The notes under the pieces: model-generated | The model's input: only the letters and a program-made list of their open reading frames with translations | Databases searched by the model: none | What the model was told of the DNA's origin: nothing | In this document: piece after piece, positions 641 through 58,870 of the stretch | Numbering within the stretch: position 1 is the first letter of the stretch | Layout of the letters: the number at the start of each line of letters is the position of its first letter | Source: Rhizophagus irregularis | Lineage: Eukaryota | Reading direction: 5' to 3' | DNA length: 64,000 nt | NCBI RefSeq assembly: GCF_026210795.1 | Contig: NC_089429.1 | Span: 4,216,001 to 4,280,000 of the forward strand | Translations under genes and position numbers: made by a program

Positions 641-837
641 ATTTGGTTTTAAAAAAAAGAATTTTTTTTAAGAAAAAGTCAATTATTAGTTTAATTTGAT
701 GAAGTTAAATACCGATCAATAAATCAATTGTTACACTAATATAGAATTTTATAGTGTATTTAATCATTAGATCTATAAAATTCTCATCTTTTTTTTATCA
801 AAATTCAAGATTAACGTTAAAATTTAGTTATAGAATA

Positions 838-3800
838 ATGTTTTTAAAAAAAATTAGAGCTAATAAAAAACAACATAAAAAATCCAACTTTCGTTTGCGT
901 AAATCTAGAGATACTCATTCAAATAATAATTCATCTATATCTAATCATACTATCATTTTAGATAAACAACAAAATATTTGTGAAAATAATACTTCATCAC
1001 AATCAAATACGAATAATTTTTATTATAAAATTAATGAAAGTATTAATAATAATCATGATACTAGCAAAAATAATAAAGATTCTTATCACAATTTTAATGA
1101 CTTTAACGAAGATCTTATTGATGATGATTTTACAGAAATTTATGATACTGGTGAAGAATTTAACAATATTGATGAAAATGTAAATGGAAATAGTGATATT
1201 TATGGAGAATTTAATTATATTGACGAAGATTTTACAGAAAATTGTGATACAAATGGGAAATTTAATGGACGAGAATATGATAATAATAAAAAACAAAATT
1301 GTTATTCTGGAGATGCAGGACCATATTTTCCAAATTTTACTATATTTTTATTATTTTTATGGGTTATAAAACATCAAATAGGTATATGTTTTTATCTATA
1401 AAATTACAGTACTACTTTTTATATTTTTATACTAATCATATATATTTTTAAAATTAGGTTTTGAAGCATATAAGGATTTTGCAAATATTGTTAAACATCC
1501 CAAATTTAATGCAAATGATGTTCCATTTTCACTCGCAACTGTTAAAAAGTATCGAAATGGGTTACCTCTCCTTCCATTTAAAGGATATACTGTTTCTCTT
1601 AACAATCATAATACACCATCTACCTCTAAACCTACTACTTAAGCTTTTATTTTTCCCTTAAAAAATATTCTTTGCCATATATTATCAAATCCACAGCTGC
1701 ATGAACATATGTACTTTGGTCCAGGTATATATTGTGAAAACAAACAGGAAATATGGCATGGAGTTCTCTGGCACAAATCTCCATTGTTTGGTACTGAACA
1801 CATTAAATTAAATGAAACAATTTATAATCTTGGTGATTTCATCAAATACTACAATATACATACAATCAATCAATTATGTTATGGTCGAATTATATCAATC
1901 TTACATATTAATGATTCTCATGATATTTGTATTAGAATTGAAAATATTATTGAATATAATTCATTGCCTTTTCAACTCAAATCACAGCAAAGAAGAAATG
2001 CTTCTTATGATGGATGTCTATGGATGACTGATTATACAATAATTATTAATCCTATAAATATTGTGTCAAAAGTAGATATTTGGTTAACAGATATTGGTGA
2101 ACTCAGCAATTTTCAATATTTTATAAATGAAATTGTATATTGTATCAATGGGCAGTGAAGCACAAGACCAATTGATTTACGACATCATCATCCAGTTGAA
2201 TATATAACTACACAAAATACTCCATCTAATTTACCAATTTACAAATTTTTTTTAGATATCTACATTGATAAGTTTGGTCCATTTCGTAATGCATACCATG
2301 GTATTGGTGGTATTTATTTGCAGATCGGAAATATGCCACAGATTTTACGTCAAAAACTAAAAAATCATTTTCTTATTGGCTTTATTCCTTTTTCAGCTTC
2401 ATGTGATGAGGTGTTACAGCCACTAATTAATGATATCCAAGATCTTGAACATGGTTATGAATTGGAAATTAGTAACCAAACTGTTTGGGTTACTGGTGGA
2501 TTGGGTGTCATAACAAGTGATTTACCTGAAGGTAATGAACAATCAGGAATCAAGAATCATAATGCACATTATGGATGCCGAAATTGTATGATCCATCATA
2601 ATAATTTGCATGATATTACTTTTGATATTGTTAAATATGCGTGTTACCATCACATAACTACATCTCATTTTGAAGATATAAGTAATGCTAAAACTCAAGC
2701 TGAACGTGAAATACTTTCTACTCAATATGGAATTCGTGAGAAACCTTCTAGTTTTGATAGTATTTCACGTGATAGACATATTCAATGTCCACATGATGCA
2801 TTTCATTGTATAGGTGGACTTGCAAAAGAAATGTTGCAATCAACATTTGGAATATTAAATTCAATAGGAGAGAATAAATTTTTAAATGTATGGCGTAATT
2901 TTGAATATCCATCAGTTTGGTCTCGTTAACAAAATCCTATTTCTCATTTAAACTCATATTTTTTTTCTGATTATCTTCGTTTAAGTATGATCATGCCATT
3001 TCTTATTAATAGATCATTAATATCCACTTCAATGCTAAATAGAACAATTGTTGAATTTTTAATTGAAGAAAGCAAATTTACAAAACGTCAAATAATAGAT
3101 CAATTTCTTAGTTTATGGGCATCTTTTTCTAAAATGGCATCATTAATATTTTGCAAAGAGTTTTCTGAAGATAATTACAATGATTTACAACAAAATATAA
3201 TACATTGGTCTGAAAAAGTTGGAAAGGTCTGTATCTAATTGATTTATAAGAGAATTTGTAAAAATTTGTCAATTACTTATTATTTTTTATAAATAAATTC
3301 ACAGTTTTTTCCTAGAATTACTCAATTACCAAACTTCCATATATTATGTCATTTTACTATGCATGCACGAAATTTTGCAACTCTGGTAAATGTTGCAGTT
3401 CCTACAAAAGAAATGATGCATAGACTATTCAAGGCAATGATTCCTCATTCTAATAAGAAAAATATAGAGATGGATTTTGTACAACGTGATAATTGTCTAC
3501 AAACTCTAAGATTTTTGTTGGATGGTGGTGTTGATAAAAGATATGATACAGAAAGACAATTAAATTTCAACATGTTATCAAAAGATCAATGTGTACGTGC
3601 ACTTCTTAGTTCATGGTACATTTTGCCATCTAAGTTTGATTTAGAACAAGATGATGATAATACATCTTTGCAAATAACATGTATGGACGAAAATTACATT
3701 AATATAAAAGTTCAAGGACTATATACTAAACACGATTTGCAAACTAATAACCTTGAGAAAAATCTTGATGACAACTTGTTTGCTGAACTTGGTCGTTCAT

Positions 3801-4282
3801 ATAATGAAGAGCTTGATTGTACTGAACATCTTACATCACGAAAAGTAAAATATTATAAAAGTATTAGTTATACTATAGTTGATGGTAATAATCAATCCAA
3901 TATAAGGCTTTGTGTTGGTGATGTCATAAATGTTTTAGAAGATATATCAGATGATAGAGAAACTGAACTTAAAACAATAACTTCTTATGCACAAATTCGG
4001 GCAATTTTTCTCCACACAAAAGATCAGTTACAAATTCCTTTTTTATTGTTAAACTGGTTTATTTCACTGGGTATTAATGATTCAAAATTAGGTTGTCCCC
4101 GATATAGACTTCAGCAACTATCAGATCAAACTTGGCGTCGAATTTATGCAATTAAATGGATAGATCACCAACCTAATAACCATTTTATACATCAGTGTCG
4201 AAAAACAGGTTGTGAAAATGGAAATCATGATAAAACCAATGTATATTATTTGCATAATATCTTTTATTATACTGCTATATAA
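838..4282 (+). pseudogene. Decayed DDE transposase of CMC(EnSpm)/Plavaka-like type with BAH-like segments
   Basis: Introns 1382-1457 and 3227-3304 join the ORF pieces in one frame. In-frame stops at 1640 (TAA), 2156 (TGA) and 2927 (TAA). Motifs YFGPG..WHG..W..SPLFG, LDIYIDKFGPFRN, DLPEGN...GCRNC, HDAFH, PNFH. Family assignment is from motif recognition only. Confidence 0.6.
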
Positions 4283-5105
4283 TATATTTAAATATTTGAT
4301 CAGCAATTAAATTTAAGTTGCATTATAATTTTTAAACTTTCTTTTATTTTATTACAGTCATTTGTCATTTTAAATAAAAAAGTTTTATTATTTTTAATTT
4401 CATTATAAATTTAATATAATAACTTGATTCAGACTGCTAAAATTCAAAGACAAAAAGTTTTGGCATTTACTATACTCTAGTTTAAATTTGTTCTTTAGGT
4501 ATGTCTTTTGAGAAAATCATTAACGATAGTTGTCATGTGTATATTTACTTATATAGATTTGGGAATTAGCAGTTTCTTTCAATAATTTTAACAAAAAAGT
4601 TTTTATTTGAAAAACTGCAAGATATATTAAGTGCAAAGAATAGACAACCAATTCTACTGCGTATATAATAATTTTAGATATACAGTATTATAATTATATT
4701 TTAATTAAGATAAAAATATATGTATTACGATACAATAGTATACTGTATACGATCAACTAACCTTAAAAGTCTAATCGATACTATAAATTACCTACTAACA
4801 TGTGATCGGCATAATAGGCACAGAAGCTACATAAGCATAAATATTTAATCTTGAAGTAAACATCGAATGAATTTTTCTTTCTTCCAGATCTATATCTCTT
4901 TATTATTTTTATTATTAAACTTTCTTATAAATTCTTCTAAATATTTATTATTTATTGCACAAATTTTGGTGATTTATGTTTTATGAAAAAAAAAACTTCC
5001 ACTCTTGTTTAAGAATTTCTTTGCCTTGTAGTGATTTTTAAACTGTTTTCACTTGAAATATACTAAAAACTTCAACACTAAAAAATTTGTAAAAGTTTGT
5101 TTGCG

Positions 5106-5500
5106 AAATGGATTACAAGGTAAAGCTAGAAAAGAAATATTTTTTTTTTATTTATTTTGTTAAGAACGTTTACTAACGTTCTTTTCTTTATATTTTATTT
5201 TTTAGAAAATGGTTTTTCAGAACTAATGGACGCAAGGTAAAACTGAAAAAAAATTTTTTTATTTATTTCATTAAAAATGTTTATTTACGTTCTTTACATT
5301 TTTATTTTTTTAGAAAATGGATCCTTGGATCTTTTAAGATAAAATGGACGTAAGGTAAAGCCAGAAAAAAATTTTTATTATTTATTTCGTTAAAAAATGT
5401 TTACTAACATTCTTTATATTTTTTAGTTTTATTTTGTTATTTTATTTCGTTAAGAACGTTGACTAACGTTCTTCTTTAAATTTTTTTTAGAAAATGGCTC
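5106..5500 (+). repeat. Tandem micro-exon/intron units (3)
   Basis: Introns 5120-5205, 5237-5313 and 5355-5490 (AAG|GTAAA...TACTAAC...TTTTAG|AAAATGG) with 31-41 nt exons similar to one another. Confidence 0.65.
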
Positions 5501-5997
5501 GCTTCCTAAGCAATGGCACCTTCGGAATTTGTATTTAGCAAAAATTTTTAAAAATTTTATTAGATGGTTTGATGCCAGAACGGGATTGAAAGCACGACAA
5601 GAATGAGATAAATGGCAATTGGTCAGGGACTAACTAACGAAAAGATGGAGTGTATTGGAGTCTTCTATAAAGAGTTTGTTCTCTAATCATTATTTCTTGG
5701 CCCTTTGTTTAATTTTATCTGTATGGCCTTGTTGTTCTTCTGCTTGTTCTAGCTTATAACGTATTTAGGTAAAGACCTTAATAAAGAATTTCCAAATAAT
5801 CTATTTTCTAAGAAGAAATTCCAGTACTTCTACCTTGGCCGGAGGGGTTGAAGCAGGATCTCTTGGAATTAAAGAGAACAAGTGAATATGAATTTTTGAA
5901 AAAACCCCAGACAGAATATACTGCAGCTTTCATTAAATTCATCAGGATCACGCAAAATTGAAAAGTGATCGGATACTTTAGTGATTCAAAAATAATG

Positions 5998-6197
5998 CAC
6001 AGGTCGAAATGCTAAAAATTGGCAAAAAAAATGGCGCGAAAAGCAGTGGCTATTCTTGGCTATTCTTGGCTATTCTTGGCTGTTTTTGGCTATTTACGAA
6101 TTAACCTATACTATTTGTAAATAGTTTATACAAATTTGCGAATAGTTTATGCAATTTGCGCCATTTTTTTTGCCTATTTTTGATCATTTGACGTGTG
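5998..6197. mobile_element. CACTA/CMC-like MITE, 200 bp
   Basis: Ends CACAGGTCGAAATG / CATTTGACGTGTG with inverted GGCAAAAAAAATGGCGC; 3-bp TSD ATG (5995-5997, 6198-6200); internal (GGCTATTCTT)n. Confidence 0.75.
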
Positions 6198-7254
6198 ATG
6201 GAAAATACAGTGCAGGCTTTCATGCAGAAAAATGATTTGAAGAAAGTATGGATGGTAAGGAATTTCAAAACAGTATATAGAGATGGGAAACGTAATAAGG
6301 ATAAGAAGAGAATAGAGGACAAGAGAGCTGCAAACTCTTTGCACAGTAAGGTAAATGATATTCTTATGCCACAAACGCCTCCAGAAAGGATTTACATGGG
6401 ACTATCAAATATGGTGACAAGGAATAAACAAAATTTATTACCCACAGAAATGATTATTGCAGAAATGAATCAAGGTCTAGGTGATTACAAGAAAAGGAGA
6501 ACGTAGATAGTGGCAGTGATGGAAACGATGATGATGATATAGGAATAGGTAATTTGGAAGAGTTAGCTAGCAAACCTTTAAAATGAGATAATGTAGCGCT
6601 GAACAAAGTTGTTGAGATTATAAAAAATTATTAAACAAACGAAAAGATAAAGTATATTTCATATCAAGCATCGTCAACAAATGCGCCTGCCAATGTTAAG
6701 GAAAGGTTAAATGGAAGAAATAAAAGGGATTTTTGATCAGAACTCCAACATGATGGAATGGAAAAAATTAACGTGGAAGTGGTGAGTGTAATATGAGCAG
6801 AGTATGATATAGTCAGGTCCTTAAAAGATTGGGTGCTTAAAGAAAATAATTTCTTTTTTTTGAGCCAAAAGTCATCAGTATGACGAAACAAAATAAAATA
6901 TTCCAGAAATATAACCACCCTTAACAATGATTTCAAAAAAAGGTTGAAAGAAGAAAATTGGAGGACCGATAAAGTAGAAGTAGGAGAAAAACAAGTATTG
7001 GTAGAGTCACCATCAAGAAGTGAATCTGAGAAAGCGAAGGTGAAGGTGAAGAAAAGAAGAAAAGAAGAAAATAGGAGATAGATAGGAATAGGAATGAAGA
7101 TTAATCGAAGTCACGTAATTTTACGTAAAAAAAATTTTTTTTTTTTCTGATAACAAAGTTTTGAAAAGATGCTAGTATAAAATTAAATTTTGAAGAAAGG
7201 TTCAACCGCCAGGAACTTCTCTTAAATTGCAGAAACCTTTCGGACACTTTGGAA

Positions 7255-8760
7255 CTGATGGAAGGTACTTAAAGTTACTTTTTTTAATTAGGAACATTAG
7301 TAAACATTACTAATATTCCATTTATTTTTCTTATTGTAGGAATTTTCAAGACGCTTCAGAACCAATGAAATGCCTTGAAAGGTAATTAAAAAAGGATCGG
7401 GGTCTTTTTTAAAATTAGGAACAGTAGTAAATATTACTAATGCTCCATTTTTTTATAGAAACCAACCTTTGACTTTTTCGGTTAAACAGATCAGAATCTG
7501 CATATCATGTGATTTAAAGCACAAAATACTAAAATTAAGCGCCAACTTTTCATTTTATTTAACAATTCTAGGAATATTTAATGATAAGAGAAGAAATTGA
7601 GTGTTGAAGATGAAAAATGAAGACTTGTGAGTTATTTGGACGCTAATCTTGGGATTACCATAAGAACAATGGATATGATCTTCAATGTAACAAGAAATTG
7701 AAATACTGGCGTTAGCTGATCCCATGAAAGGTTGGAATCTTCAAGATTATTGAATGGATCGTATTCTCTTACATCACACAGCCCATGATTGTTGATAAAT
7801 TTCATTGGCTACAGAAAAGACAAATAAGATGAACGTGACGATACTAATTTTATGATTGAAGTGGTCAACTTGACTGATCGTGAATAGAGAATAAGTTATA
7901 TATATATTTAGGATTAATTGTTGTTACATATATATTATATAAAAAAGCAATTACAAATGTTTAATAAATAAGCTACAAATATATTAATAACTAATTATAA
8001 AGTAATTATATACTGAATTAAAATACATTTTAAATATATTTTTATAAAGCATTCATAATATCTTTGATGTATTTGTAAATGATTATAAATATATTATAAA
8101 ATAGTTACAACATATATTTAACATCAATTATAAATTAATTGCATATTTAATTGAATACAATTACAAAACAATTTTAAAAGTATTATAAAATGATTTGATA
8201 TGAAATTACAATTATAGATAACATCATTTGTGATAGTTTCAAAATTATAATGTAATAAATATAAAATAAATTATAGCAAAATGATTTCAAATACATATCA
8301 AAAAAACTATAATTTTTAGTAAAGTATGTCTTTTAAACAGTTACTAATTTCTTTTTTTTCGTTATTCTTCAGCTCTTTAGATGTAAAATTTGGCAAAAAT
8401 ATTATATTCTTTTGACAAAATATTTTAGACTTTGAGTCTTTCAGTGAAATTAATTTTCATTTTTTATTTTTTTTAATGAACTATTTTTAACAGTTCAATT
8501 TTTCTTTTATAAATGGACTTGGTTATTTGAATATTAGATATATGAAAATTTGGTAATAAGGAATTACTTTTAATAATTAAAAGAATAATACTAATAGTAT
8601 TTTTAATTCTCTTCTATAGATATTAACTTTGAACTTGAATATTGCTTGAGATTGGATATTTTGACATGAAATCAGGTACATATATTTAAAGAAATTTCTT
8701 TGATTTTGTTTTTATTCAAAGATATTAATGATGCTCTTTTTATTTTTTTTTTATAGATAT
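7255..8760 (+). repeat. Further short intron/micro-exon units
   Basis: Candidate introns 7265-7339, 7382-7458, 8324-8372, 8553-8619 and 8676-8756 with similar short flanking exons; no long ORF. Confidence 0.45.
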
Positions 8761-9131
8761 TCAATTTTGGGCTTTAAATACGGAGTCAGTACCAAAATTT
8801 GATGCAACTAATAGGAGTTGTAATAATAATTTTAAAATTAATAGAATTAGACAGGTTTTAATATTTAATTATTGAAGCTATTTTTATTTAATACTTTTGA
8901 TTAATTAGCTTTAAAAAGAATATATAATAATATATAGAACATAATAAATAAATGTATTAATAATAATAAATAAAATATAATAAATAAAATTAATAAATTA
9001 AATAATATAATAATAGACAAATATAAATAAAAAATACTTTAAGGATTCCTTATTAGCGAATTTAGAGTCCTTAAGGATTCTATAAAAATTTTATGATAGG
9101 GAATCCTTGCTAGTGGGAAAGGTTTATTAGA

Positions 9132-12100
9132 CATCACGAAGTTAAACTAAGCATTTACCAACCATTTATTAAATGCTTTAAGAATATTTAATTTAAGTGC
9201 TTATTAAACAAGTTTCAACGCAGCTTGTATTCGATAAGCATTATTTTTTTATTGCTAATTGATTAATAGAAATTAATATAATTAAATTACTTAAATTAAT
9301 TATATAATAAACACCATTTTAGTATTGATATTTTATTATGGCATAATTTATATTTTATTATTATATTTTATACATTTTTCTATTATATTACATATAATAT
9401 ATAGTATCTTTATATTATGACTAATTTACTTTTTCAGACCTTACTACTATTTAAATTAGAAATTTGCGAAATTCCATATATAATAAGATATTATATTCAG
9501 TAACAGCCAAAAAGAAACAAAATTAAATAATGCATTCTCTGGTTGTAGCAGAAAGTGCGGTATAAAAAAACTGAAGGCAGAACAGACCACCACAAGCCAC
9601 AGATCATCACTACATATAGAGACCAGGTCGTCTAAAAAAAAGAAAAATTGAAACGTTAATAAAAACGTTCCGCTAAAAGAAATATATTCAAAAAAAATTC
9701 TCCTTACCAAAATTCTATGCGTCCAAAGATCTGAGCGTCTAGAAAAAAGATAAATCAAAGCGTTAATAAAGCATTTCGTTAAAAAGAAATAAATCAAAGA
9801 AAAATTCTAATACCAATTAAAATCTACGCATCCAATAATCTGATCGCCTAAAAAAAGAAGGATTGAAACGTCAGTGAGAACATTTTGCTAAAAGAAATAA
9901 ATTCAAAAAAATATTTTTGATTTTTCCTACCGATATTCCATACCAAAGGCCCGACCATCTAAATAAAAAAATTGAAACGTTAAAAACGCTTCATTCATTT
10001 CGTTTAAACAAATAATAAAGTAAAATAATAGCCCACCAAATCTAACATGTTCAGACCTGAAGAGCAAACTGACTAAAAAAAAGAAAGAAATGAATATGAT
10101 TAGTAATCTTCGTTAAAAGAAATAAATTAAATATAAAAAAACTTACGAATTCGTGCCTAGGAAATTTTGAAGTTGACTAAAAAAAGAATAATAAATAAAG
10201 CGTTAATAAACATTTTGTTAAAATAAATAAAAGAAAAAGTTACTTACCGAAATGTCACATCCAAAGAAAACTCGCCTAAAAAAAAATGAAAAAACGAAAT
10301 TGTTAGATTAACATTTCATTATAATAAAAAAATTTAAGAAACAAAAATATATACCGTAATCCACGTGTTCAAAGACTTAAAAAAAAGAAGCTGTCTAAAA
10401 AAGAGCAAGAAAACGAAACATTAGTAAATGTTTCATTAAAGAATAATTAAAAAATAGCCCCTCTCCTACCAAATTCAAGTATTCAAAAATCCAAGCCGTC
10501 CAAACTCCAGAAACCAGAAAGATCTGCCTAAAAAAGAAAAAGAAACGAACTGTTAGTATGGTTCATTAAAAATAAAAAAATTAGTAAAAAAAAATTAAGA
10601 CTTACCGAATTCCCAAGCCATCATCAATTTATTTTATTTTTAGTTAAGCTAAAAAAGAAAAAAAAGTGAATTGTTAATAACAGTTTGTTAAAGTAGTTAA
10701 ATTAAGAAAAATAAAAAAAACGTACTTAAGACTCACGTGTCAAAGAAACCAAGAGTCTAAGTGAAGTTGTTCCTAAAGAAAAAGAAAAGAAATGTTAGTG
10801 ATATTCCCAAAATACACAATTCCAACTCCTTCAATTTACAACTTACCTTTCATCAAGTTTCCTAGCCGAAGTCTGAGTCCAGGTGTTGTCTCTATAGAAA
10901 AGAATGAAATGAACATTAACATTAGTAACATTCTTAAATAAAAGAAAAAGTTCCAGCTTCACACATCCCTTCCCTTAACTTACCATAAAGTTCCTTGCCG
11001 AAATCCAAGCTCAGGAAAAAGGAAGAAATAGTAAAGTTTCATAATGAAACTTACCATTATTGAGATTTAATATTACTGCCCGATATTTCAAAAAAAACCT
11101 ACAAAAAAAAAATAGCAAAAGAAACGTTATTTAGCGTTTCTATTGAAAAAAAAGGAAAAAATGATAAGTTTCACTATGAAACTTACCATTTACACTTTAC
11201 AGAAATCCCGCGTCCAAAAAATTATTTCTTGAACTTACACTGGTTTAACATTTTCTTTACCGGTTAGACTATTTTTTTGTAGGTTTCAGTTTTAACTAGT
11301 TTCGAAGTGGTTTTCTACAAAATAATAAAAATGAAGTAAATGAAATCTAATAAAAAAAACAAAATTAGAACCAAAGAAATGAAAAACGATAATAAAAAAA
11401 ATCAATCAACTTACCAACCAGGAATATTCCTAAAGAAAAAAATTGATTAACTTTTGTCATTTCACTTGAACATGAAAGGTTTTATAAAAATGTTTTTTTT
11501 TACAATTTCATTGAATTAGCTTTTAGCTTTTTAACATTTTATACGTGATAGTAAATTTTTTCTAACGAATTTCTATATAAAAAAGATTATCAATTGAATC
11601 AGATCGATAATCATAACCGATACTGGAACTAAAAAAAAAAATAAAATTTTTTTAGTTTAAATAGACCAAATAGACCGAAATTGTATATATATAGTATATA
11701 TATATATTGAATATGATCATGATCTATAAATGTTAGAACTATATGTATATCATATGATATACTACAGCGAAATATCAAAACAGTTTTGCAGGTTTTGACA
11801 GTTTTGCAGTTTCGCATTTTATGATTTTACGAAACTAATTTTGGTAGTTTTGCATATATTACACCGCAAAACCCCTACATTTTTAGTTTAAAAAAAGAAT
11901 TTTTGGTTTTTTTTATGGGTGATTTTAACTTTTAAACAGAAGGGGAAAGGATAAAAAAGAGGAAAGAACAAAGGAAAAGAATAAAGGAAATGGAAATGGA
12001 GAGAGTGAAAGGAAGGAAGAAAAATAGAAGAGTGAAAAAAGTGAAGCTTCGTTGAAAAAAAAATTTGTAAAAAAAAGATTAATCTATATCACGTGATACG

Positions 12101-12721: not shown

Positions 12722-13119
12722 TAGTACTTTGATCTGGTTGATCTATTGATTAGCATCACAACATTTTTCTATTATTTTTGTCAAACTATAATTTTTGTCA
12801 GATTTAAAAAAATTATTCTTCTACAAATTTTATTAATTTTGGCCAAACTTATAGTTTCAACTATACATGCCACCCAAATTATTTTGGGCTGCCGTAATTA
12901 TAAGTAAAATCCCAAATTCAATTATGACATCCCAAATTATTTTAGCATTTTACATAGTAAATTATATATAAATTGAATGAATTACGACATCCCAAATTAT
13001 AATTATGGCATTCCAAAATAATTTGGGCAGCATGTATAGTTTCAACTCAAATAAACTGATGCCAAACTGTAGTAAACTACAGATTGATCTGTTAAAAACC
13101 CATCCAAATCAAAGTACTA
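12722..13119. mobile_element. hAT-type MITE
   Basis: TIR TAGTACTTTGATCTGG / CCAAATCAAAGTACTA; 8-bp TSD CTTTATGC (12714-12721, 13120-13127). Confidence 0.85.
12864..13036. mobile_element. Small TA-flanked MITE nested in the hAT MITE
   Basis: Inverted ends TACATGCCACCCAAATTATTTTGG / CCAAAATAATTTGGGCAGCATGTA flanked by TA; internal CCCAAATT repeats. Confidence 0.7.
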
Positions 13120-14751
13120 CTTTATGCAATGCACTTTAGAAAGTAATGATGAAAATTATAAGGAGATGATGCAATGAGATTAGTGAATCGTTGGAAATCA
13201 TGGGAGCAACCTTTACTTATCTTATCTTTCTTTTTTACATCCATTCTATAAATTATGATTTTTTACACCTAATGAAAAAATTTTTCACATTAATCTTAAT
13301 AAGTGAGCCCAATACTATTTCTTTAAATGATTTGGTAAAAACCAATTTCTATGATATAAGAATTATTAGCATATAAAGAAAATAAATTTCCATTTAATGA
13401 ATCTTCTTTACAAGAACTAGAAAAAATCCTTTAGATTATTGGTCATTTCTAAGTGATTCAGTGCCAGAATTATTACAATTAGCAACTAAATTATTTAGTA
13501 TATATGTAAATTCTGCTTCATGTGAGTGGCTATTTTCAACTATGGGATTTTTGCATACTAAAAGACGAAATAGATTGAATGCAAGTATTCTTTTTTTAAA
13601 TATTAGCAATATATTTTATATTTTATCGTCAGTTCATCACTAATTCTATTTTAATATTTAGTATTCTAAGGTTCTATGGATGGCACAAATTAGAGGTGAA
13701 CTTAAGAGACAAAAATTTATGAAAAATATTTCTATTGAAAATGAGCAAGCTAAAAATGACAGAATAGCTGTACGATGAAGTAGATTGGATATGGATAATG
13801 AAGAAGTATTTTATGATGAAAGTGATAAAGAAAATGATGAAAATGATGAGAATAATGAATGTGATGAATTTATAAGATCATGGTTAGAAATATTAGTAGA
13901 AGATACTAATAATGGAATTAATAATATTTCAGGTAATCAAATAGATGAAGATTCTTCCGAATTCAATGCATTACTTGAAAATCAAATTCATCCTGCAGAT
14001 AATGACGATGCAAAATGGGATTTAACAACTTTATTCAAATTTGGGTTAGAAGTACCTGGCTTTTTTTATGTGCTTCCTTAATTACATTAATTACATGTTA
14101 AAATCCAAATGTATATAAATAATATCAAATTATCAATAAAATAAATAAATTTCTTTTATAAAATTTTTAGTAATTCCAGTATTCCAAAATAAATTTTTGT
14201 ATTCCATTATTCCAAACTAAGTTCCAATATTCCAGTTTTCCATTGGAATTTTAGTAAATGCATTGAAATACTGGAATACAAAGACTGGAACACATGTTTC
14301 CGGTTCCAATATTCCAGTAAATGCCAACCCTGCGTGCACGTAGCTTAGCATATCGGTTAAATAGTATTTTGGCTTTAGGCCCTGTTCAAAGCTAGCCTTG
14401 GTGAAAGGTTGTGACACACTATACGAACTCGCACAGTTGTTATTCAATCGTGGCTGAGATTCGTTAGGTGTAATTACAAATCCTTTTATTATTGGAGTTT
14501 ATTGTTGAAATTTAACGTAGTTATTAGAACTTAAGATTATTTAATTAGCAATTTAATAGCCCCAATAACTCAATCTCAATAAACTAACATTTTTCAGAAG
14601 AGAGCGCACATCATCATTATAACACATAAATGTTGTTATAATTTTTAATTTTTTATTGATTATTATAAATTTCCTATTTTAAAGACTACTTAACATCAAA
14701 TCTAAACATAATACAATCTATTAATTATTAAATTAAAGATACAATTATAAA

Positions 14752-17054: not shown

Positions 17055-20000
17055 TCATTCACCTAAAATTATATTACTAGTATCGTTCTCCCTCCTTTTT
17101 TCACCCTTCTTTTTCCTTAATATTCCGGTACTCCAAGTTCTCTTATTTAAATCTTTATTCCCCCATCTCCATCTAATATATTTCTTATATTCGGGATGTA
17201 TTATAACATCATCTTCACATTTACCAAATAATGGTACTCCCTTTCTAAGTCTACCATAAGTTTCAACGAGAACCAAAAATAATGAAAGCAAAGATGTTAT
17301 AACAACCAAATTTAATGAATTAACTTTACTTAATGGTAACAATAAACAAATTGTTCCAATTATGAACCTCAAGATAATTCGATAAGACTAAAGAAAAAAA
17401 AAACAATCGTGAATTTTTTTTGAAAAGAGGTAATTGATCAAAAAATATTAAATTTCGTGAAAGGTTTACCTTTGGAATTCTTAGATAATTATCTTCGTCT
17501 AATCCTTTATGTAATACTCCAATTATGCCCATACAATATAACGAAATTGCTAATGTAACACTATATAACCAAAATAATGGAGCATTATGAGGATCATATG
17601 AATCATTATGTGAATCAACTTCTGTTGGAGTACTTTCGGAAGGAGAGCTACTTTCAGCTACTAATGCATGAGAACCGACTTCATTTGTTGGAATGTTATG
17701 AGCACCAGGAAAATCACGAAGTTGTACAATTTTTCCTAATGACGCTCTATAAAAAAAACTTTTTTAATTTTTTTTGATATTAAAAATTCAAAATTCGATA
17801 TTTAATAAAAGAAATGTACCCAAATGCAATTAACGCCATATTCTACAATAAAAATATATTTCGTTAATATAAATAATTTTATTCATTTGTTTTTTTTTTA
17901 GTAATTTTTAAGATAAACTTACCAATGGAAAATGAATTACCCCAAATAAAAGACCGGTAACTATATGTCTTCTTAAAGCATGTTGAAATTGTTTACTACC
18001 GTCCACAATAAAATATATCCAATGTAGATTGTAAGCAATCAGTAATCCTAATATAGCCTATTAAATATTTTTAACCGATATATTATTAATTTATTTTGAT
18101 TAAAAAAAAACAATATTTATTCTGACCTTCCCAAGTTGACCATCGGGTCGTGGATTAAAACTGGTATATAAAACTCCAAGAACCTATCACCATAAATAAG
18201 TTTTTCTTAATAATCATTTTTAGAAAAACGCGTTAAAGACGTATTCATTTATCATATTTACTTACACCCTCTCCCAAAGCTATAATAGCGAATAATCCTA
18301 ATCTTTCACTATAATGTTCAATATTCATTGCGGGTCTATACTCTGACAACTCAAATATTGAGAATAAGTGTTTCCATTTCCATTGATATTCTGTACCACG
18401 AGTTCTCATTGCTTTATGTGGATGTGGTGAACGACTTGTGGTTGTCGAAGTTCGAGAAAATGGCGAAACTGGAGAAACTGGAGAAGTTGGAGAAGAAGGA
18501 TCATTTACAGGTGCTTTATTCTCACGTGTCGTATCAACAACTACTTCTTCTTTTGCATCTATTTTATGAAAAAGTCGTCTTCCAAATCGAACATATAATG
18601 GCATTAATCCAGACCATAAATTCTCTATTTACGATAAATAATTCGGTAATTGTAAAAAAAAAGAAATCACGCTTTTTTCCAAAAATATATATATATATAT
18701 ATTTAATTACCAAATGCGATTGCAGTCCACATTGCTATATTAGCCTTATTGCGTGGAACAAATATTGCTACAATCCAAATTATGCATGGAATGAAAACTC
18801 CCCATGCAGTATTCATAAATGATGTGCGAAATAATGGAATCCATGCCGCATGTAATATATGCAAAATCATGAATGTCAAGCGTGCAATAACGTATGACAC
18901 TAATTAAAATTTTTTTTTAAATATTAAAAAAAAAAAAGAAAAAGAAATATAATTTAAAAATATTAATTTTCGTATTTACCGAGATAAATCGTTACAGTAT
19001 TATCGAATATATCGAGTGCGTGTGTACCCATTATAATTACAAGCATCATCTCCTATATCAGTATATCAATCTTAATATAGAAACTTTTATAACATTTTAT
19101 AAAACAAATAAATAACTTTGGACTTACAAATAACAAGAAAAATTTCTCAAATAAGTCTTCTGTACTGTAAAAATTCATATAAACGGTCATATCCAGCCAT
19201 ATTTTATAAATAGGATAACTAGATGGAAATATTTCTTTAGTTTGCTGCGCCACATGAACATTTTCTTTGCGGAATCCGATAATTATAATACTCACAAAGT
19301 TAAAATAAATCTTTCAATGTTAGTACCAGAAATATCTTCAACTAAATCATGACCTAAATTTCCGATAACAGCTACAAATATCAAATCCCAAAATAATTCC
19401 GTAAAACTAACTCTTCTTTCTTCGGCTTCTCTATGTAAGTTTTTATTATGCCAATACTGTCTTATTTTAGGTTGTCTCATTATTCTATCATATTTATGTT
19501 CATCTTCGGATGAATCATCATCATCTTCTATTATTTCAAGATTATGCAATGGACCAAATGTATGTATTGTAGCATGAATTGTATGTTCTCCATTTTTTGA
19601 GTTGCTATTATGATGGCCTAGTCGTGATAATTCTCCTGCAAGTGTATCAAGTTGGTTTGATACAGAATCGGAACGTGCCAAAGCTTCTTCACGTTCTCGT
19701 TCTAATTGCTCAGAATGAGATTTCAATTCATTGATTTTTGCTTTCAATGCTGCTACCTATTAATACGAATGTATTGTACAGTGAATTAATTTGACGAATC
19801 ATGTAACATCCACCAACTTTAACTTACATGCTCGGGGCTTCCGAGTACACAACAATTAGGGGCTTCTCCACTTATTACATCCTCTTCTTTATCAACAATC
19901 AACAATTTTGTATTTCCGATTTGTAATTTCTTTGAAAATTCTGTTGATGGAACATTCTGATCTTCCTGTGTAACTACTATTTCTAAATCTCTATTTGACG

Positions 20001-20121
20001 TATTTGGAATTGTTTCCTTAATTTGATCGGTTTCCTTAGTTTGATCTCCATTTGAAATTGAGTTATCTATTTCATTTAATTCATTATTTTCATTATTGTT
20101 AATAATATTTTGGTCTGTCAT
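17055..20121 (-). CDS. LtrA (low temperature requirement A) family membrane protein, copy 1, multi-exon
   Basis: ERRVSFTELFWDLIFVAVI and EHYSERLGLFAIIALGE motifs, many transmembrane stretches, about 10 GT-AG introns; ATG at 20121, stop at 17055. Confidence 0.8.
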
Positions 20122-20728
20122 ATTTTTCAATAGACAAATTTCTCAAAGTTCTTTTTTAGGTTTATATATATAATTAATTTGAAGGCGTTTTGGTTCAACG
20201 TTACTCAACAATTTACAGTTTAGTGATAAGCAACATTTATTTCTCGATTTATAATGATTTATTTATTTCGCAGTAAAAAAACGAATTCAATCTAGTTTGT
20301 GCTTAATAATGGTATGATGTGCAACCCTAGATCATTATTAAGCATTAAGAAAATTGATCATGTGATTTCACAACGACTTACAAATTAATCGACGGGCTTC
20401 CTTTAAACTTGGACTACTTGTCCTGGACCTAGTCGAAAATTTTAATTGGGAAGCCGGTGTGTTTGATTTTTTGTATTATATATTTTCTTTCCTGTTTCTT
20501 AAGAACGTACATAAATCATCATTATTATCTCATTTATTTTTTTCTTTAAATAGAATTTTAGAATTTTAGAATTTTAGAATTATTAAATTATTATTATTGG
20601 ATTTGGTTAAGATACTGTATAATATTAGAACTGCTATTGTATATAAATATTTTTATTATATTTGTGATATCTGTGAGGATGAAAAATGATAATACTTCAT
20701 ATACAGATGTACTTTTTGACTTTGTTAA

Positions 20729-20917
20729 TGTTATGGAAAAAGTTCGGGTTGAGCGATTGAGTCGGTTCGTTCCATTCGGTTTGTACATCGGTTCTATATC
20801 GGGTTTGATAAATTTTGATAAGTACTGACTCGAATCTGGACTGAAGTGATAAAAACCGATTATGGAGCCGAACCGGTTTTTCGGGTTGACTCTGCTCAAC
20901 TCGAGTTTTCAATAGTA
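20729..20917. mobile_element. Degenerate MITE
   Basis: Imperfect inverted ends (GAAAAAGTTCGGGTTGAGC / GCTCAACTCGAGTTTTC) around a GC-richer CGGTT/AACCG core; no clear TSD. Confidence 0.4.
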
Positions 20918-22167
20918 TCGGTGCGAGTCATCACCGTCCCTCAGTAAAAATAAAACCAACATCTACAGGCTTTAATAAATATTGTGCCTTTTAAACAATT
21001 ACATTTTTAAAGTAAATATTGTTAATCACTGGATCGGCTTCTAACGTTTCACAGTCAGTTGGCAATAAATACAAACACTAAGCTTATTTACGGTATAGTA
21101 ATAAATCATACCATATATGCCTAGGGAAAACATGTTTATTATTGTAAAAAGGAGTACATTGTACGCGTATCAGATGTGCGTTTTTTTATAAGATTGGTAA
21201 GCACTAAAATTATTAAAACTTAATTATATATCATAAAATACACAGAAAAATAGAATAAGCAAAAAAGGTTGCACATTTGTTATGGTAAATAAGGAGTTGA
21301 CATTGTGTAATCATCAAATTTCGCGATATGCCGATTTTAAAAAGATTCGCGAATATGTTTTCTAGCACAAAACAATTTTATCCAATTAAATTCACTGAAG
21401 ATAAGAATCTGAACCGCCGGTGATCCACTGATACAGGATAAGGATGCTCTCACTCATCGATTTTTAAAATAAAACCTTCGTTTAAAGTTTTCTTTCACCC
21501 ATTCAGAGCACTTCCTGAAAATAATGCCAAAAAAAAAGATAATCACCGCGCACAAATATCAAATGTAATACATAGGAAATGTGGTATTGAAAAAAAAAAA
21601 TTTTTTTCTTTAATATTATAGTATGTATAGGTAGTACTGATCAGAATGGCACTTGCAATGATCATTGGCTAAACTGCGCACTGATCATTTGGTCTCGACT
21701 ATGATTCCGCATATACAATCATTTGGTAAAAACTAACGCTACGAAAAACTGGATTAATGGACTTTCTCTTCGTCTTTTCGTAAAATTAAAAATTTTGGTG
21801 AAATCTCACCGGCATGGAGAACTTCACATGTTAAAAGCCAAGTAACACGGAAAAGTATGTAAATATTTTTTTAGTGGCGTAAGTCGTACTGTCGTAGAAA
21901 AAAAAATCAGCATTTAAATAAACTGAGATATGTTCCAAATCGGATCTAGTCAGGTTTGGATTGAAATTAGCCTAGGAATATATGCATACCTTTATATAAC
22001 GATATAACGATTAATCCGTAACGGAATAATATTAACCACTTTATTATTAAAAGAAAAATAAACATATTATATATACATTTTTTTTTCTATTAACTAAACA
22101 TTAGGCAATTTTAGTCCAAGTTTTTTTTTTCATTATAATTTTTTTATACTTCACATTAAATTTATGA

Positions 22168-25167
22168 TTAACTCTCAAATATTAATTTATCATCCATCCC
22201 AATTTCTTTTTTGTTCTTTCTTTTTCTCAAAATTCCAGTACTCCAAGTTCCCTTATTTAAATCTTTATTCCCCCATCTCCATTTAATATATTTCTTATAT
22301 TCGGGATGTATTATAACATCATCTTCACATTTACCAAATAATGGTAATCCCTTTCTAAGTCTACCATAAGTTTCAACGATAATCAAAAATATTGAAAGCA
22401 TTGATGTTATAACAACCAAATTTAATGAATTAACTTTACTTAATGGTAACAATAAACAAATTGTTCCAATTATGAACCTCAAGATAATTCGATAAGACTA
22501 AATAAAAAAAAAACGATCGTGAATTTTTTTTTAAGAAAAAAAGGTAATTGATCAAAAAAATATCAATTTTGATGAAAAGTTTACCTTTGGAATTCTTAGA
22601 TAATTATCTTCGTCTAATCCTTTATGTAATACTCCAACTATGCCCATACAATATAACGAAATTGCTAATGTAGCACTATATAACCAAAATAATGGAGCAT
22701 TATGAGGATCATATGAATCATTATGTGAATCAACTTCTGTTGGAGTACTTTCGGAAGGAGAGTTACTTTCAGCTACTAATGCATGAGAACCGACTTCATT
22801 TGTTGGAATGCTATGAGCACCAGGAAAATCACGAAGTTGTACAATTTTTCCTAATGACGCTCTATAAAAAAAAACCTTTTAATTTTTTGATATTAAAAAT
22901 TTAAATTCGAAATTTAATAAAAGAAATGTACCCAAATGCAACCAACGCCATGTTCTAATAATAAAATAAAATTTGTTTTGTTAATAAAAATATTTTTTAC
23001 TTATTTTTTAAGTAAATCAAAAATAAATAAAAAAATAAAAAAATAAATTACCAAAGGAAAATGAGTCATTCCAAATAAAAGACCGGTAATAACATGTCTT
23101 CTTAAAGCATGTTGGAATTGTTTACTACCATCCACAATAAAATATATCCAATGTAGGTTATAAGTAATTAGCAATCCTAATATAGCCTATTAAACATTTT
23201 AAACCGATATTAATTATAAAAAATTCGAATCAAAATTTTTCAATAAACTTCAATTGTATTTTATTTCTGACCTTTCCAAGTTGACCATCAGGTTGTGGAT
23301 TATAACTGGTATATAAAACTCCAAGAACCTATTATAATAAATTAATTTACACAATTTATAAGCTCCGAAATAAATTATTCGCGTTATAATAATTAAGACT
23401 TATTCATTACTTACGCCTTCACCCAAAGCTATAATTGCGAATAATCCTAATCTTTCACTATAATGTTCAATATTTAAAGCAGGTCTATATTGATTTGTAT
23501 CAAATATTATGAATAAATCTTTCCATTTCCATTGATATTCTGTACCGCGAGTTCTCATTGCTTTATGTGGTGCACGACTTGTAATTGTTGAAGATGGCGA
23601 GATAGGCGAGGTAGGTGATGATGAAGTAGTTGGAGAAGTAGGTGAAGAAGGATCATTTGCAGGTGTATTCTCACGTGTTGTATCAACAACAATTTCATCT
23701 TGAGTTTTTGTTTTTCTTCCAAATCGAAGATATAATGGCATTATTTTAGTCCATAACATTTCTATTTTTAAAGAAATAAATGAGTATTTCATGAAATTTT
23801 CAAAGAAAAAAGAATCATAAAAAAAAAATATTCAATTACCAATCGCAATCGCGATCCACATTGCTATATTAACCCAATTACTTGGAACAAATATTGCTAC
23901 AATCCAAATTACACATGGAATAAAAACTCCCCACGCAATATTCATAAATGATGCGCGAAATAATGGAATCCATGTTGCATGTAATATATGTAAAAATACA
24001 AATACCATGCGCGCAATAATGAACGACACTTAAATGGTTTTAAAGAAATAAATATTAAAAAAATAGAGATACCATTTTAAATACAATTATAGTATAAATT
24101 TTCGTAATTACCGAGATAAATTGATACATTTTCATGGAATATATCCGTTGCATGTGTGCCCATTATAATTACAAGTATCATCTCCTATTCATTATTATGT
24201 AGTTTTTCTTTGTTTAACATTTAAAACATTTTTTAAAAGATATCGTAAAACAAATAACTTACAAATAAAAAGAAAAACTTCTCAAATATATCGTCTGAAC
24301 TATACCGATTCATGTACATAGCCATATCCAACCATATTTTGTAAATAGGATAACTAAAAAAAAAGGTTAATTTCTTTAGTTTAATGCTCTCCGTCACGTA
24401 AAACATTTTATATTATAATACTTACAAAGTTAAAATAAATCTTTCAATGTTAGTACCAGAAATATCTTCAACTAAATCATGACCTAAATTTCCGATAACA
24501 GCTACAAATATTAAATCCCAAAATAATTCCGTAAAACTGACTCTTCTTTCTTCGGCTTCTCTATGTAAGTTTCCATTATGCCAATACTGTCTTATTTTAG
24601 GTTGTCTCATTATTCTATCGTATTTATGTTCATCTTCGGATGAATCGTCGTCTTCTATTATTTCAAGATTTTGTTGTAATGGACCAAATGTATGTATTGT
24701 AGCATGAATTGTTTGTTCTCCATTTTTTGAAGTGTCATGATGACCTAATTGTGATAATTCTCCAACAAGTTTATCAAGTTGATTTGATACGGATTCTGAA
24801 CGTGCTAAAGCTTCTTTACGTTCTCGTTCCAATTGCTCAGAATGTGATTTCAATTCATCAATTTTTGCTTTCAATGCCGCTACCTATCAATAAAATAAAG
24901 AATTAACATTTTGAACATCATCCAATCGATATTTTAATTCAATTTACCAACATGTTCAGGGCTACCAAGTACGCAACAATTAGGAGCATTTCCACTTATT
25001 ATATTTTCTTCTTTATCGACAATCAACAATTTTGTACCTCCAATTTGAAATTTCTTTGAATATTCAAATGGAACATCCGGAATTTCCTGTGCAACCACTA
25101 CTTCTACATCGTTACTTTTGGGAATGTTTGAATTTCCCGATTCATTATTATTATCTTGTACTGTCAT
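22168..25167 (-). CDS. LtrA family membrane protein, copy 2 (tandem paralog)
   Basis: Same motifs and exon structure as 17055-20121. Confidence 0.8.
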
Positions 25168-25495
25168 AATGACAAAAAATTATTTTTTGATTATTTAGAA
25201 GCAATACGTACATATATATACGTATATTTAGTGTAATGGCGTTCTTGTTCAACCTTACTCAAATAACTTTAATTCAACGATGAACAACATTTATTTCTCG
25301 ATTTAGGTAATAAAAAAAAAATATATAAAACTTATTATAAATCCTATCGTACAAAAAAATTAATAAACAAATAACAGGATTTGTCATGTAAAATTTTATT
25401 AACCGAAAAAGTATAAAATGATTTTCGTTTCTTCGCGAAACGTGAATTTTTAATTTACAAAAAAATATGTCACCCATAGAAATATTATACAATCA

Positions 25496-38166: not shown

Positions 38167-38510
38167 ATTTGAAAATCAAATTTTTTAAATTTTTTTTATT
38201 TTTAAGAAACAGAAAGTGGGTTGTAAGCTTACATGAGACGATAAGCCAAATAAGCTAATATTTATATATTTTTTGCATCAGATTTTCAACAAATTAGGTG
38301 ATTTAAATATGAATCGGAGAAAATTTGGAATCAAACATTCTGATGTATTACCAAATAAGTATTTTAAACAACGCGTTTGTACTTAAAATCACATTCTTAT
38401 ACTTATACGCGTGATTAATTATAATAAATAAAATCGACGTGATTGTACCGTATAGGCGTATACACCGTGTACACTTGATTCACTTGATTCCTGATTTTAA
38501 AAATTTTATA

Positions 38511-38941
38511 TGGTGGCTGTCACCTATAAACAACAATAGTCCGAAATTTTGAAATTTATTTATTTATATTGTGTAACTTATGTTTTAAAGTACTTTGTCA
38601 AAATATTAATTGCCGCGTGAGCGGCAAAATTTTTTTTTTGCCATATTACATGGAATTCTTGTGGATTTCCATGGAATTTTTGTAAAATCCATAAAAATTA
38701 CATGAAAACTAGTCCGAAATTTTATATTTTTATTATTGCTACTTATTAAAATTATCCAACTTTAACCCATAATATTAATTAAAATTCTTATTAAATTCTA
38801 TAAAATAATCCGATAGAAATGTTCAGTACATGTTGCTATATCATTTTATCGGTTTAGTTTTTTCTTTTTACTATTCAATTTACAATTTATAAAAATTTGA
38901 AGTCACTTAATATTAGTGTGGTTTATAGGTGACAGCCACCA
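38511..38941. mobile_element. MITE with TA target
   Basis: TIR TGGTGGCTGTCACCTATAAAC / GTTTATAGGTGACAGCCACCA flanked by TA. Confidence 0.8.
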
Positions 38942-39253
38942 TAGTACTATAGTACTGACAATCCCAATAAAAATTAAAGAAATCTTCATATTATAATCCG
39001 TTATATTTGGGACGGGTATTATACCGTCGTATGACCTGTATTTTAGGCATATCGAGATCGAGGTATCGGCTCATTCAGGTGTATCGAGCGGATTATTTTA
39101 TCACGTAAAAAATATGTTAATTGTGTAAATCAGCATACAAAGTACTTTTTGTTTATTCATTTTTAGACTTCGATATATAATACAAATACATACTGTACGT
39201 CATTCGAATTAAAATTTTTTTCTTATTCATCTTCTATATTAACGACCTTTAAA

Positions 39254-46426: not shown

Positions 46427-46436
46427 AAAAAAAAAC

Positions 46437-56295: not shown

Positions 56296-58870
56296 TTAAT
56301 TTTGATCAAATTCTTCTTGTAATAATGCATTTATATCAAAATCCTTTTCTCCATGATCAACTGGTTGTTTTCAATACGTACTTCTACAACTTGTACTTCA
56401 AGAAGTTGACGTAACTCTTCAGATGCCAAATTTAAGTATTCATCAATTCCATTATTATTATTATTTATATCGTTTTCATCTTCAACTTCACTTACATCTG
56501 AATCCTCATCTCCAAATTCTTCTTCTACTTCAATAGTATCATCATCAGCAAGATGTTCAGATAAATTTTTTTCAATTTCCTCATAAAATTTTTCTTCTTG
56601 CAAATCTTGGTATACATATTTTAATTCTGCTTTTGCATTGGTAATATAATAGGCATGTAATTTTGCCATATTTTGTATACGATCAATTCCTAATCTTTAA
56701 AATTATTAAATTATTAATTATTAGTTATATGGAATTTATATAATTCAAAATTATGATTTGCTACCTGGTTCTTCGTTTATTCATCATCCATCCTAATACT
56801 GAAAAAATTCGTTCACAACCAGCATTATGCGGCCTTATTGAAAAAATTTTAAAAGCTAAATCTTGAATGTAATTTTTTTCATCATTTTCTTCATATGTCA
56901 TACTCCACCAACTTTGAACTGTATATATTTCATCAATAAATTGATGATCATATGGAGCTTTTCTATTTCTGTAATTTGAAAACTGACCGATCAAAATCTG
57001 ACTAAAATTTTTTCCTCCACCCATTTTGAGCCATATTTCTCGAATGCCATATTCAATTACTTTGCGAAAAGTGCTTGTTTTCATTCCTTCACTTTAATAT
57101 AAATAAAATATAAATAGTTAAAAAAAGTAGATTAGTTTATTATTAAACCATTTTTTAAAAAAAATCAATTCATTAAAAAAAAAAAATTTAATTGCCACGA
57201 TATTTTGGATGTAATATAAATGCAAGCACATATAATTCAATATCAAATTGCTTCCAACGCTTATTAAAAATTTCAATGCATTCTTTATGAAATGATACTT
57301 GACGTGTTTCAGGTAAATCTTTAATAGCAGCATAAAGCTTAATTATTTCAATAAAACAATCGGCCAAGGTGGTAGATTTGAATTCAAGACATTTTAATGC
57401 TTTTTTAATTGGTTCAATAATTGATACCAATTCTTCTAAATCAACATAAAAATGCCGATTAGAAATAATTTTTTTAATATCATTGTTTAACGTATCAGCA
57501 TCTTGTACTGCAATCTGTTCATTATAATACATTAAAATTAGTAATAATTAATAAATAATAAAAATAAATAAATTAATTTATTTGATAAAGTAAAATTAGT
57601 ACTTAATACTTACATTTTTTAAAATGGTTTCACAAGATAAAATAGAATTTGCACAATCAAACGCTGTAGACTAGCGTGTTTTCACATATGATTTCAACCC
57701 TCCGCCTTTTACCATATTTTCCAATATTTCTGTACGCAAAGTCTCTCCAGCTTTGTGAGAAGTTTTAAAGAATCTGACAATCTTCATGCATTTTTTTAAA
57801 AGATCTTCTGCGAAAGGCAATTTACATATATCAGTGGTAATTAAATTAATTTGATGATCAATGCAACGAATTGGCATTATATTTTCATATTTTTCATTAA
57901 CGAGCTTTTTTGCTTTAACCATAGAAGATGCATTGTCAAATACAACCGCAGAAAATTTCCCTGCGCCCACTGATTCAATTACTTCAATTATTTTTTTGGC
58001 AATATATTGGCTGGTATGCGATTCTTTAGAAAGATTTTGAATTGAATGAATAAATTCTTTTCCGCTTTTAGTGAAAATGATGAATGCGTAGAATGATTGT
58101 CCTACTGGTGACGTCCAACTATCTAACCCTTTATTATTATATAAAATTAAATATTAAATATTAAGTAATTTTTTTAATATTATTTAAATAATAATTTATA
58201 TATTAAATATAAATACCCAACGTCAAACAAGTTTCATTTTCAAGTATCCCATTGATTTTTATTTGGATATGTGATATTTCCAAATTAAGCATATCTGCAG
58301 ACAATTGTTGCCGTAAAGGAAGTGAATATGTCGGGCATAATATCTTAATAAAATCTACGAAGAATGGATGTTGTACTAAATGAAATGGTATTCCACAACA
58401 AACAAATAATTTTATAAGAGCCTGATTGGCCATTTGTACTTTTGAATTAGCTATTTTAAGTGAATCATAATGTTCGTCAATTCGTTGTTGATTATCATGA
58501 TTGCTCTTTATTTTTTTTTTGAGGATCTTTCATTATCATTGATTGAATCATTTGAATGACCCAAATTTCCTCGATTTCGAATAATGTTCATGTATTTTTC
58601 TTTGATTTGATAATCAACTTTAATACACCGAAGACCAATATGAGTCTCAAGTTCATCCGTTTTTGCATTAGCCTTCTTTTCCCAACCACATACTTTACAC
58701 TTAGCACCACAATGACCTTGAACTCGTGCGCCAATTTCTATAAAAAAGGTCCAAACATCATTTTTCGGTCTTCCTGGCTTCCTCTTTTTAGATATCTCTG
58801 CATCATTTGTATCATCTTTATCATCAGTATTTGGCGCTAAAAGTTCTGCTGCTGCTTGTTCAGCTGTCAT
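56296..58870 (-). pseudogene. BED-finger hAT transposase, inactivated
   Basis: BED (VWTFF..CKVC..LETH...C), LDSWT, DNAS, CIDH..NL, KTR* (TAG at 57671 where W is expected), PHNAGCERIFS dimerisation motif; frameshift in the A-run near 58515; four short introns. Confidence 0.85.

Follow-up and report, generated by a model that had tools for sequence, protein, structure and literature searches.

Tandem arrays of hairpin-bearing introns in Rhizophagus irregularis: a probable transposon-borne unit whose stems may be matched by DNA copying

Does a compensated hairpin over a splice signal report selection on RNA structure, or can the way in which DNA is copied produce it? The question is raised by a stretch of 64 kb from Rhizophagus irregularis (the window), which holds three tandem arrays (A, B and C) of approximately 75-nt GT-AG introns and approximately 30-nt non-coding exons. 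The original prediction proposed that the branch point of these introns is held in a conserved hairpin, that the stems change in sequence while pairing is kept, and that G-U wobbles on the spliced strand point to selection on the RNA fold. Our preferred reading, to which we give a probability of roughly 0.55, is that an exon-intron unit was amplified in DNA transposons and that the arms of its hairpins are re-matched by DNA copying and not by RNA selection. The arrays and their principal hairpins are located as follows.

5120-5490, further units at 7265-7458 and near 8463-8514, + strand: array B, GT-AG introns of hairpin type.
9632-11414, - strand: array A, 14 intron-like units with a period of about 107 nt at the 3' end and exons of 28-58 nt.
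59188-60290, - strand: array C, 7 units and one decayed unit.
5162..5183, + strand: hairpin at the branch site of intron 5120-5205; stem of 9 bp, UACU in the loop, branch A (5176) paired within the 3' arm.
11033..11054, - strand: donor-side hairpin, donor bases paired with the downstream intron.
11165..11186, - strand: second copy of the donor-side hairpin, donor bases likewise paired with the downstream intron.

All seven hairpin stretches quoted in the original prediction are present and fold as described, with minimum free energies of -2.3 to -9.0 kcal/mol, and both donor-side hairpins, which had been reported to pair the 5' splice site, were found. The branch-site hairpin is likewise real, but its description needs correction: the loop holds only (U)ACU, and the branch A lies paired in the 3' arm. 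The 9-bp Watson-Crick stem of the two focal introns was matched by only 9/500 and 5/500 dinucleotide shuffles. Equally frequent hairpins in ordinary introns would have spoken against the prediction, and in the window the frequencies are not equal. Twenty-seven array acceptors, picked by eye and with poor folders included, were compared with 27 acceptors of coding genes (20 LtrA, 4 hAT, 1 O-FucT and 2 of the left-hand ORF). A z of -2 or lower around the branch site was found in 15/27 array introns versus 0/27 coding-gene introns (Fisher p=4e-6), and the median z of the 47 nt before the acceptor was -2.1 versus +0.2. A covariance model was built from 112 units, 8 of these from the window. Of its best 25 window matches (E<=0.04, a rough value), all belong to the arrays or to the same + strand transcript region, apart from one antisense echo, whereas the best LtrA intron reached E=0.39 and no coding intron of the window scored at E<0.3. 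Specificity of the hairpin for array introns, as against ordinary coding introns in the window, is thus supported.

The units carry a GT donor, a YTRAY branch motif, a pyrimidine tract and an AG acceptor, as do U2 spliceosomal introns. Their splicing was checked with contigs and reads of sequencing runs over 4300-8950, that is at array B only; two of these runs, X6 and X7, are guessed to be RNA, none of the listed runs being recorded as such. The relevant features, all on the + strand, are given below.

4911..8000, + strand: span of a 2416-nt spliced X6 contig.
5120..5205, + strand: GT-AG intron of array B unit 1, missing from the RNA-like contigs of X6 and X7.
5206..5236, + strand: probable micro-exon of 31 nt, deduced from gap lengths that agree to the base in two contigs (gap letters unseen).
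5237..5313, + strand: GT-AG intron of array B unit 2.
5314..5354, + strand: probable micro-exon of 41 nt (36 nt with the alternative donor 5350), from the contig gap length.
5350..5490, + strand: array B unit 3, with donors 5350 and 5355 and hairpin-plus-acceptor ends at 5426 and 5490.
5452..5473, + strand: second hairpin copy, loop GACU, preceding the distal acceptor 5490; part of an exon in the X6 contig and of an intron in the X7 contig.

The X6 contig aligns in the blocks 4911-5117, 5312-5352, 5425-5994, 6198-6780, 6871-7262, 7338-7379 and 7457-8000. Its first gap is exactly as long as the 31-nt exon 5206-5236, and its joints fit GT-AG introns at 5355-5426, 6782-6871, 7265-7339 and 7382-7458 after 1-2 nt of AG/GT ambiguity, so that six GT-AG introns are absent from it. 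Intron 6782-6871 is without a hairpin, introns 7265-7339 and 7382-7458 are of hairpin type. The X7 contig has a gap of 69 nt, equal to AG plus 31 plus 36 nt, and its alignment restarts at 5491. This fits use of donor 5350 with the distal acceptor 5490 and would amount to removal of 5350-5490. Across the two contigs both acceptors (5426 and 5490) are used, base-exact. The DNA-type run X15 is unbroken over 6198-8258, that is across three downstream introns. Raw poly(A) reads of X21 show no joints, but their mean depth per direction does not exceed about 2 across the bulk of the unique stretch. The array units are therefore supported, from RNA-like contigs, as real U2-type introns that are exactly removed at array B, in agreement with what the original prediction had taken them to be. 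At 5120-5490 the introns are missing base-exactly from these contigs, so splicing is not blocked by the hairpins; assembled contigs report intron removal and not splicing efficiency. Segment 5995-6197 is a short inverted-repeat element that is missing from three runs including X15, and is hence an insertion polymorphism and not an intron. Its summed depth of up to 15,000 in X15 marks it as a high-copy polymorphic MITE inside the array B transcript.

The arrays are non-coding. Joined array A exons contain 13-17 stops per frame and joined array C exons 2-4, with all three frames hit. In the spliced array B transcript of X6 the longest ATG-started ORF has 102 amino acids, for which no homologue was found among longer proteins, in itself weak evidence. 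Schistosoma micro-exon genes consist of runs of tiny exons that are in frame and coding. The present arrays resemble them in their tiny-exon runs, but a coding micro-exon gene was rejected: among metagenome units (see below) exon lengths are mixed, with a median of 32 nt and only 54/216 multiples of 3, and stops occur in every frame. Gene prediction is nonetheless misled by the arrays. The public R. irregularis gene model P0002, which is a prediction and not splicing evidence, splices three array C exons onto the hAT ORF, and another model, P0012, reads one of these exons in a different frame.

Relatives of the units were sought in soil metagenome contigs by one pattern scan, which gave 41 loci. 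Three of them (L022, L040 and L030; 41% GC, single chance-like matches) and three overlapping pieces (L017, L025 and L033) were removed. The remaining 35 loci gave 224 profile matches in all, in addition to about 27 units in the window, and 32 of them hold at least three units. Pattern scans of viral contigs and prokaryote genomes gave 0 matches. The loci are mostly unplaced, AT-rich and alike, and only L006 has a taxonomically informative gene fragment. In this locus a phosphoglycerate mutase fragment, which may be a captured piece of a gene, lies downstream of hairpin-type introns; its best matches are in Glomus cerebriforme (82%) and Funneliformis geosporum (77%).

A second hairpin at the 5' splice site, in which the exon end pairs with the intron start and GT lies on top, is present in 103 distinct units. 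Its outer pair is T-A in 61 units and C-G in 30 units, and the strong donor motif GTRAG is found in only 20/103. Independent origins of the two donor-hairpin types were rejected, as type 2 often holds the type 1 stem with a dead GT. The YTRAY branch motif is kept in 102/112 aligned units and on one strand only, and RNA-level selection on splicing is for this reason likely to act on the units. In folds of three unit-containing stretches the local stems measure 9-11 bp and none spans the intron; a mirtron was rejected on the same folds, in which the two intron ends are not brought together by one hairpin. The downstream parts of L015 and L031 consist of runs of approximately 45-nt units with a pyrimidine tract and AG and without a donor, and form acceptor-only arrays of the same family.

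Besides the introns, tRNA-like mini elements of about 55 nt were observed, made up of a closing stem, a single arm and a T-arm whose loop is B-box-like, and without an anticodon arm; they are possibly a SINE head or a 3'-processing signal. Copies are found in the window (55453-55510, - strand, downstream of the hAT ORF), L027, L039, L032 and L007, and a second family in L009/L028, L031 and L036/L041. The window copy is 91-95% identical to those of L027 and L039, both of which are found in antisense orientation where arrays end; fold z values are -2.1, -0.5 and -2.0. A relaxed ARAGORN run returned only noise.

Do the two arms of the hairpins change together? The 237 profile matches were reduced to 186 with a core and to 162 distinct sequences. 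Conservation of the AA/TT columns is a circular argument, because the seed pattern fixed these columns, and the fair test is that of the central dinucleotides, which the pattern left free as Y/R. Here 27 compensated CpG doubles were observed versus 7.7 expected, while same-sequence doubles numbered 4 versus 6.8. Compensated doubles are in excess and same-sequence doubles are not; the arms therefore track each other as inverted and not as direct repeats. The lengths of A-runs and T-runs covary as well (p=7e-12). An alignment made from sequence only comprised 112 units, 4 of the window and 108 picked out of 179 so as to stay at <86% similarity. In it 84.7% of the cells pair, and 54 cells are changed on both sides versus 21.7 +/- 3.8; none of 500 shuffles reached 54 and all six slid registers were lower. 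A pair-counting measure of covariation in the same alignment was not significant (98/500). Among 69 sister pairs drawn from 139 units, with the tested sites masked, 20 differed by double and 14 by single changes and 35 were unchanged (p=2.5e-6); both members were perfect in 10/20 doubles. The commonest compensated state appears in 15 separate clades, an upper estimate given that a tree of short AT-rich units is poorly resolved. The compensatory changes that had been proposed from a few examples are hence borne out, far above shuffle and slide controls.

Such covariation is what one would look for if the folds were selected as RNA, with stems that present the donor or branch motif in the loop and tune splicing, be it for micro-exon order or as a delay tied to small-RNA silencing. 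Template switching would then be mutation supply only. We regard this account as possible, at clearly lower odds than our preferred reading. Besides the covariation across sister pairs, it is favoured by hairpins centred on both splice signals, by their absence from the 27 coding introns and by the weakness of the donors. Precedent comes from Cryptococcus, where transposon RNAs that splice poorly are a source of siRNA (Dumesic 2013, cited by the available part of PMC6004069), and 41% of R. irregularis small-RNA loci are given as unannotated in the accessible text of PMC8647823.

If selection acted on the RNA fold, G-U should be spared over A-C on the spliced strand. It is not, and on this test RNA-fold selection finds no support. 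Single changes to G-U and A-C stand at 12:13 in the donor stem (103 units) and at 8:11 in the inner branch stem (150 units), samples that are the cleanest and also small (19-25 single changes), so that a modest G-U excess would escape notice. At the outer pair (109 units) the ratio is 9:23 and over all 11 pairs 47:73, the A-C counts being raised in part because the register can shift by one base and because the pyrimidine tract tolerates C. CpG decay in unpaired exon sequence shows no strand bias (16:17 in 63 neighbour pairs). A control beside the element end described below counted 6 TG versus 1 CA; it is small and its copies are not independent, and its direction disfavours a G-to-A bias as the source of the A-C counts. 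The G-U examples of the original prediction are true as quoted. They are atypical, however: of the window units 11 have their better fold on the spliced strand and 14 have it on the antisense strand, and among metagenome units antisense leads by 77 to 43, to which flank composition may contribute. The step from G-U wobbles to selection on RNA structure consequently does not hold. Two further observations weigh against RNA-selected folds, namely that 12/27 window units fall short of z<=-2 and that unit 5426, with a weak fold on the spliced strand, is excised anyway.

In contrast, several features resemble those left by template switching, which the available part of PMC8794818 describes as a source of one-step compensation in hairpins; the authors there call the evidence for maintenance of short stems circumstantial. 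Loops that are the reverse complement of a commoner loop occur in 4/162 sequences. Two of the four need at least 2 substitutions from any common loop and the other two are only one substitution away. One of the four, array C loop 60236-60256, looks inverted in place. A matched stem centre is kept in 9/15 dead donors versus 59/81 live donors. Judged from sequence, strand symmetry, loop inversion and dead donors with matched centres appear as the footprints expected of template switching. There is a point against DNA copying: both hairpins sit exactly on splice signals, and descent from one founder explains this only once.

How did the units spread? In 7/35 loci, representing 6 distinct sites (L003, L012, L018, L034, L038 and L009/L028), the array is preceded by the same end word, CATCGGGAAA. 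This element end is a CATCGG terminal inverted repeat, and in several loci the arrays begin 300-450 nt inside it. Locus L005 closes with a matching right end that is a near-perfect reverse complement of the word (29/33 bases, by eye). In five loci there are 40-51 matches per 100 nt outside the element end versus 57-98 in the first 100 nt inside. L003, L012, L018 and L038 have the same first exons after the end; L001 and L014 share a subterminal region, without the end. The metagenome loci thus display the marks of a terminal-inverted-repeat transposon, namely a sharp common end, unrelated flanks and the opposite end on another contig; no locus spans both ends, and no target-site duplication was seen. 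Because the sharp end is shared, the flanks are unrelated and the first exons are the same, at least one array family has moved inside such an element. Pieces of hAT transposase were absent from the 36 metagenome loci searched, with flanks of up to 1.5 kb.

These findings can be set against the idea that the arrays are host non-coding genes, whose product is an excised intron RNA or small RNA (mirtron-like or snoRNA-host-like) and next to which transposons happen to insert. Introns are more alike than exons across arrays and the spliced transcript has no long ORF, as such genes would have it; about 24/35 loci show no element end within the available contig, and in L023 the element end lies inside an array. 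We nevertheless hold host genes to be very improbable, given the same first exons behind the same element end at unrelated sites, stems of 9-11 bp that do not span the intron, and the Rfam searches, which gave no match at gathering score in the window and in 20 loci 6 weak matches, all below their gathering scores.

Somewhat better placed, and still improbable, is a role of the inverted repeats at the DNA level, as subterminal binding sites or cruciforms for a transposase, with incidental splice signals. The position of the arrays just inside the terminal inverted repeat, the strand symmetry and CpG-rich cores (observed/expected 1.6 in the metagenome loci versus 1.0 in the window) agree with it. 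Pairing is kept while stem sequence varies, which a sequence-reading protein would not need; furthermore, the loops hold one-strand branch and donor motifs, the introns are spliced, and the elements have their own, different subterminal region beside the end.

In the window a transposase gene neighbours one array.

56334..58870, - strand: gene of a hAT-type transposase, decayed by a frameshift and a stop, on the downstream side of array C.

Array C ends approximately 320 nt upstream of the ATG of this BED/DUF659 transposase, whose BED finger was read by eye and whose relative P0008 has a hAT dimerisation domain; the piece is 96-97% identical to R. irregularis proteins. Candidate ends around array C and the hAT ORF, near 60514 and 55282, agree in 13/17 bases by eye. 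They were not reported by blastn, and no target-site duplication was seen at them. Under our preferred reading, the window's own arrays would have arrived by terminal-inverted-repeat elements of this sort; arrays A and B show no defined ends.

Other mobile and repeated sequences surround the arrays, the domains found in the window being BTB-SPRY, LtrA, DUF659 and Tc1. Directly upstream of array C, 60540-63816 is an element whose inverted ends are long and in which a Tc1-type transposon (61642-62939) is nested; the element's subterminal word also builds a 19-nt tandem at 55846-56056. At 13100-14335 (+ strand) the translation shows, by eye, the decayed end of a second hAT-like transposase; it has a right end of CAGGG type and stands back to back with array A. 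Left of array B, a broken long ORF at 745-4282 (+ strand) has 1039 family matches at E<=0.001; Pfam gave no match in 8 of its relatives, and it is likely an unnamed transposon protein. The region 36760-53673 contains five BTB-SPRY paralogues and fragments, and two tandem LtrA genes are found at about 17100-25200.

According to our preferred reading, the family would go back to a founder unit of approximately 100 nt, an exon plus intron with short inverted repeats over donor and branch site. Inside transcribed DNA transposons and elements derived from them, this unit would have multiplied head to tail to give non-coding arrays, and it would be spliced, as seen at array B only. Arm-to-arm DNA copying, by template switching or by conversion between short inverted repeats, may keep the stems matched. 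The spliceosome presumably opens each 9-11 bp stem from its exposed loop, and the folds should therefore at most slow splicing; excision at array B suggests that they do not gate it.

Several known systems resemble the arrays in part. In the available text of PMC8469720, fungal introner-like elements and the sister stwintrons of Hypoxylaceae are dispersed singly into genes and have 45-55 nt terminal inverted repeats that span the intron. In both cases fungal U2 introns have multiplied, are similar in sequence and show inverted-repeat symmetry; the present units differ in being tandem and non-coding, in their two local 9-11 bp hairpins, on account of which a sister stwintron was rejected, and in a mobile unit that is apparently a larger element. 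As in introners, there is a family of sequence-similar introns, but in the one window and the short contigs seen no single introns dispersed into coding genes were found. Hairpins maintained by template switching (PMC8794818, as far as its available text goes) share one-step compensatory changes, few intermediates and occasional loop inversion, and are known there for rRNA and miRNA stems; here they concern splice signals in a tandem repeat. The hAT and other terminal-inverted-repeat DNA transposons of arbuscular mycorrhizal fungi share short terminal inverted repeats and a subterminal region, and a BED/DUF659 transposase stands beside array C, but the available parts of PMC8647823 and PMC11952901 mention no internal intron array, and the CATCGG-ended element is known here as a terminal-inverted-repeat element only.

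A general literature search for branch-point hairpins found only unrelated work. Drosophila Adh intron 1, a single coding-gene intron, reportedly has a branch motif at a hairpin loop, compensatory changes and support from mutational tests. The branch-point hairpin is alike; in our case there are hundreds of paralogous units and no G-U excess.

In the model mycorrhizal fungus the arrays look abundant, and we found no description of such arrays in these fungi in the accessible full-text literature, although repeat libraries in supplements may include the elements unnamed. The accessible text of the genome papers PMC11952901, PMC10234402 and PMC8647823 does not mention them, and that of the latter two contains the word 'hairpin' 0 times. 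A bolder proposal, which we consider doubtful, is that transposons of Glomeraceae carry a splicing cassette of at least a dozen tandem introns, with donor and branch site caged in self-repairing hairpins and spliceosome dwell setting small-RNA silencing. If this is true, three arrays in 64 kb mean that the cassette could be a genome-wide unannotated RNA class. The arrays also warn that covariation alone is no proof of a functional RNA fold. Since one intron recurs in them hundreds of times, with stems that do and do not match, they make two questions directly testable: is selection or template switching the source of compensatory change in short hairpins, and does structure over splice signals connect transposon RNA with silencing?
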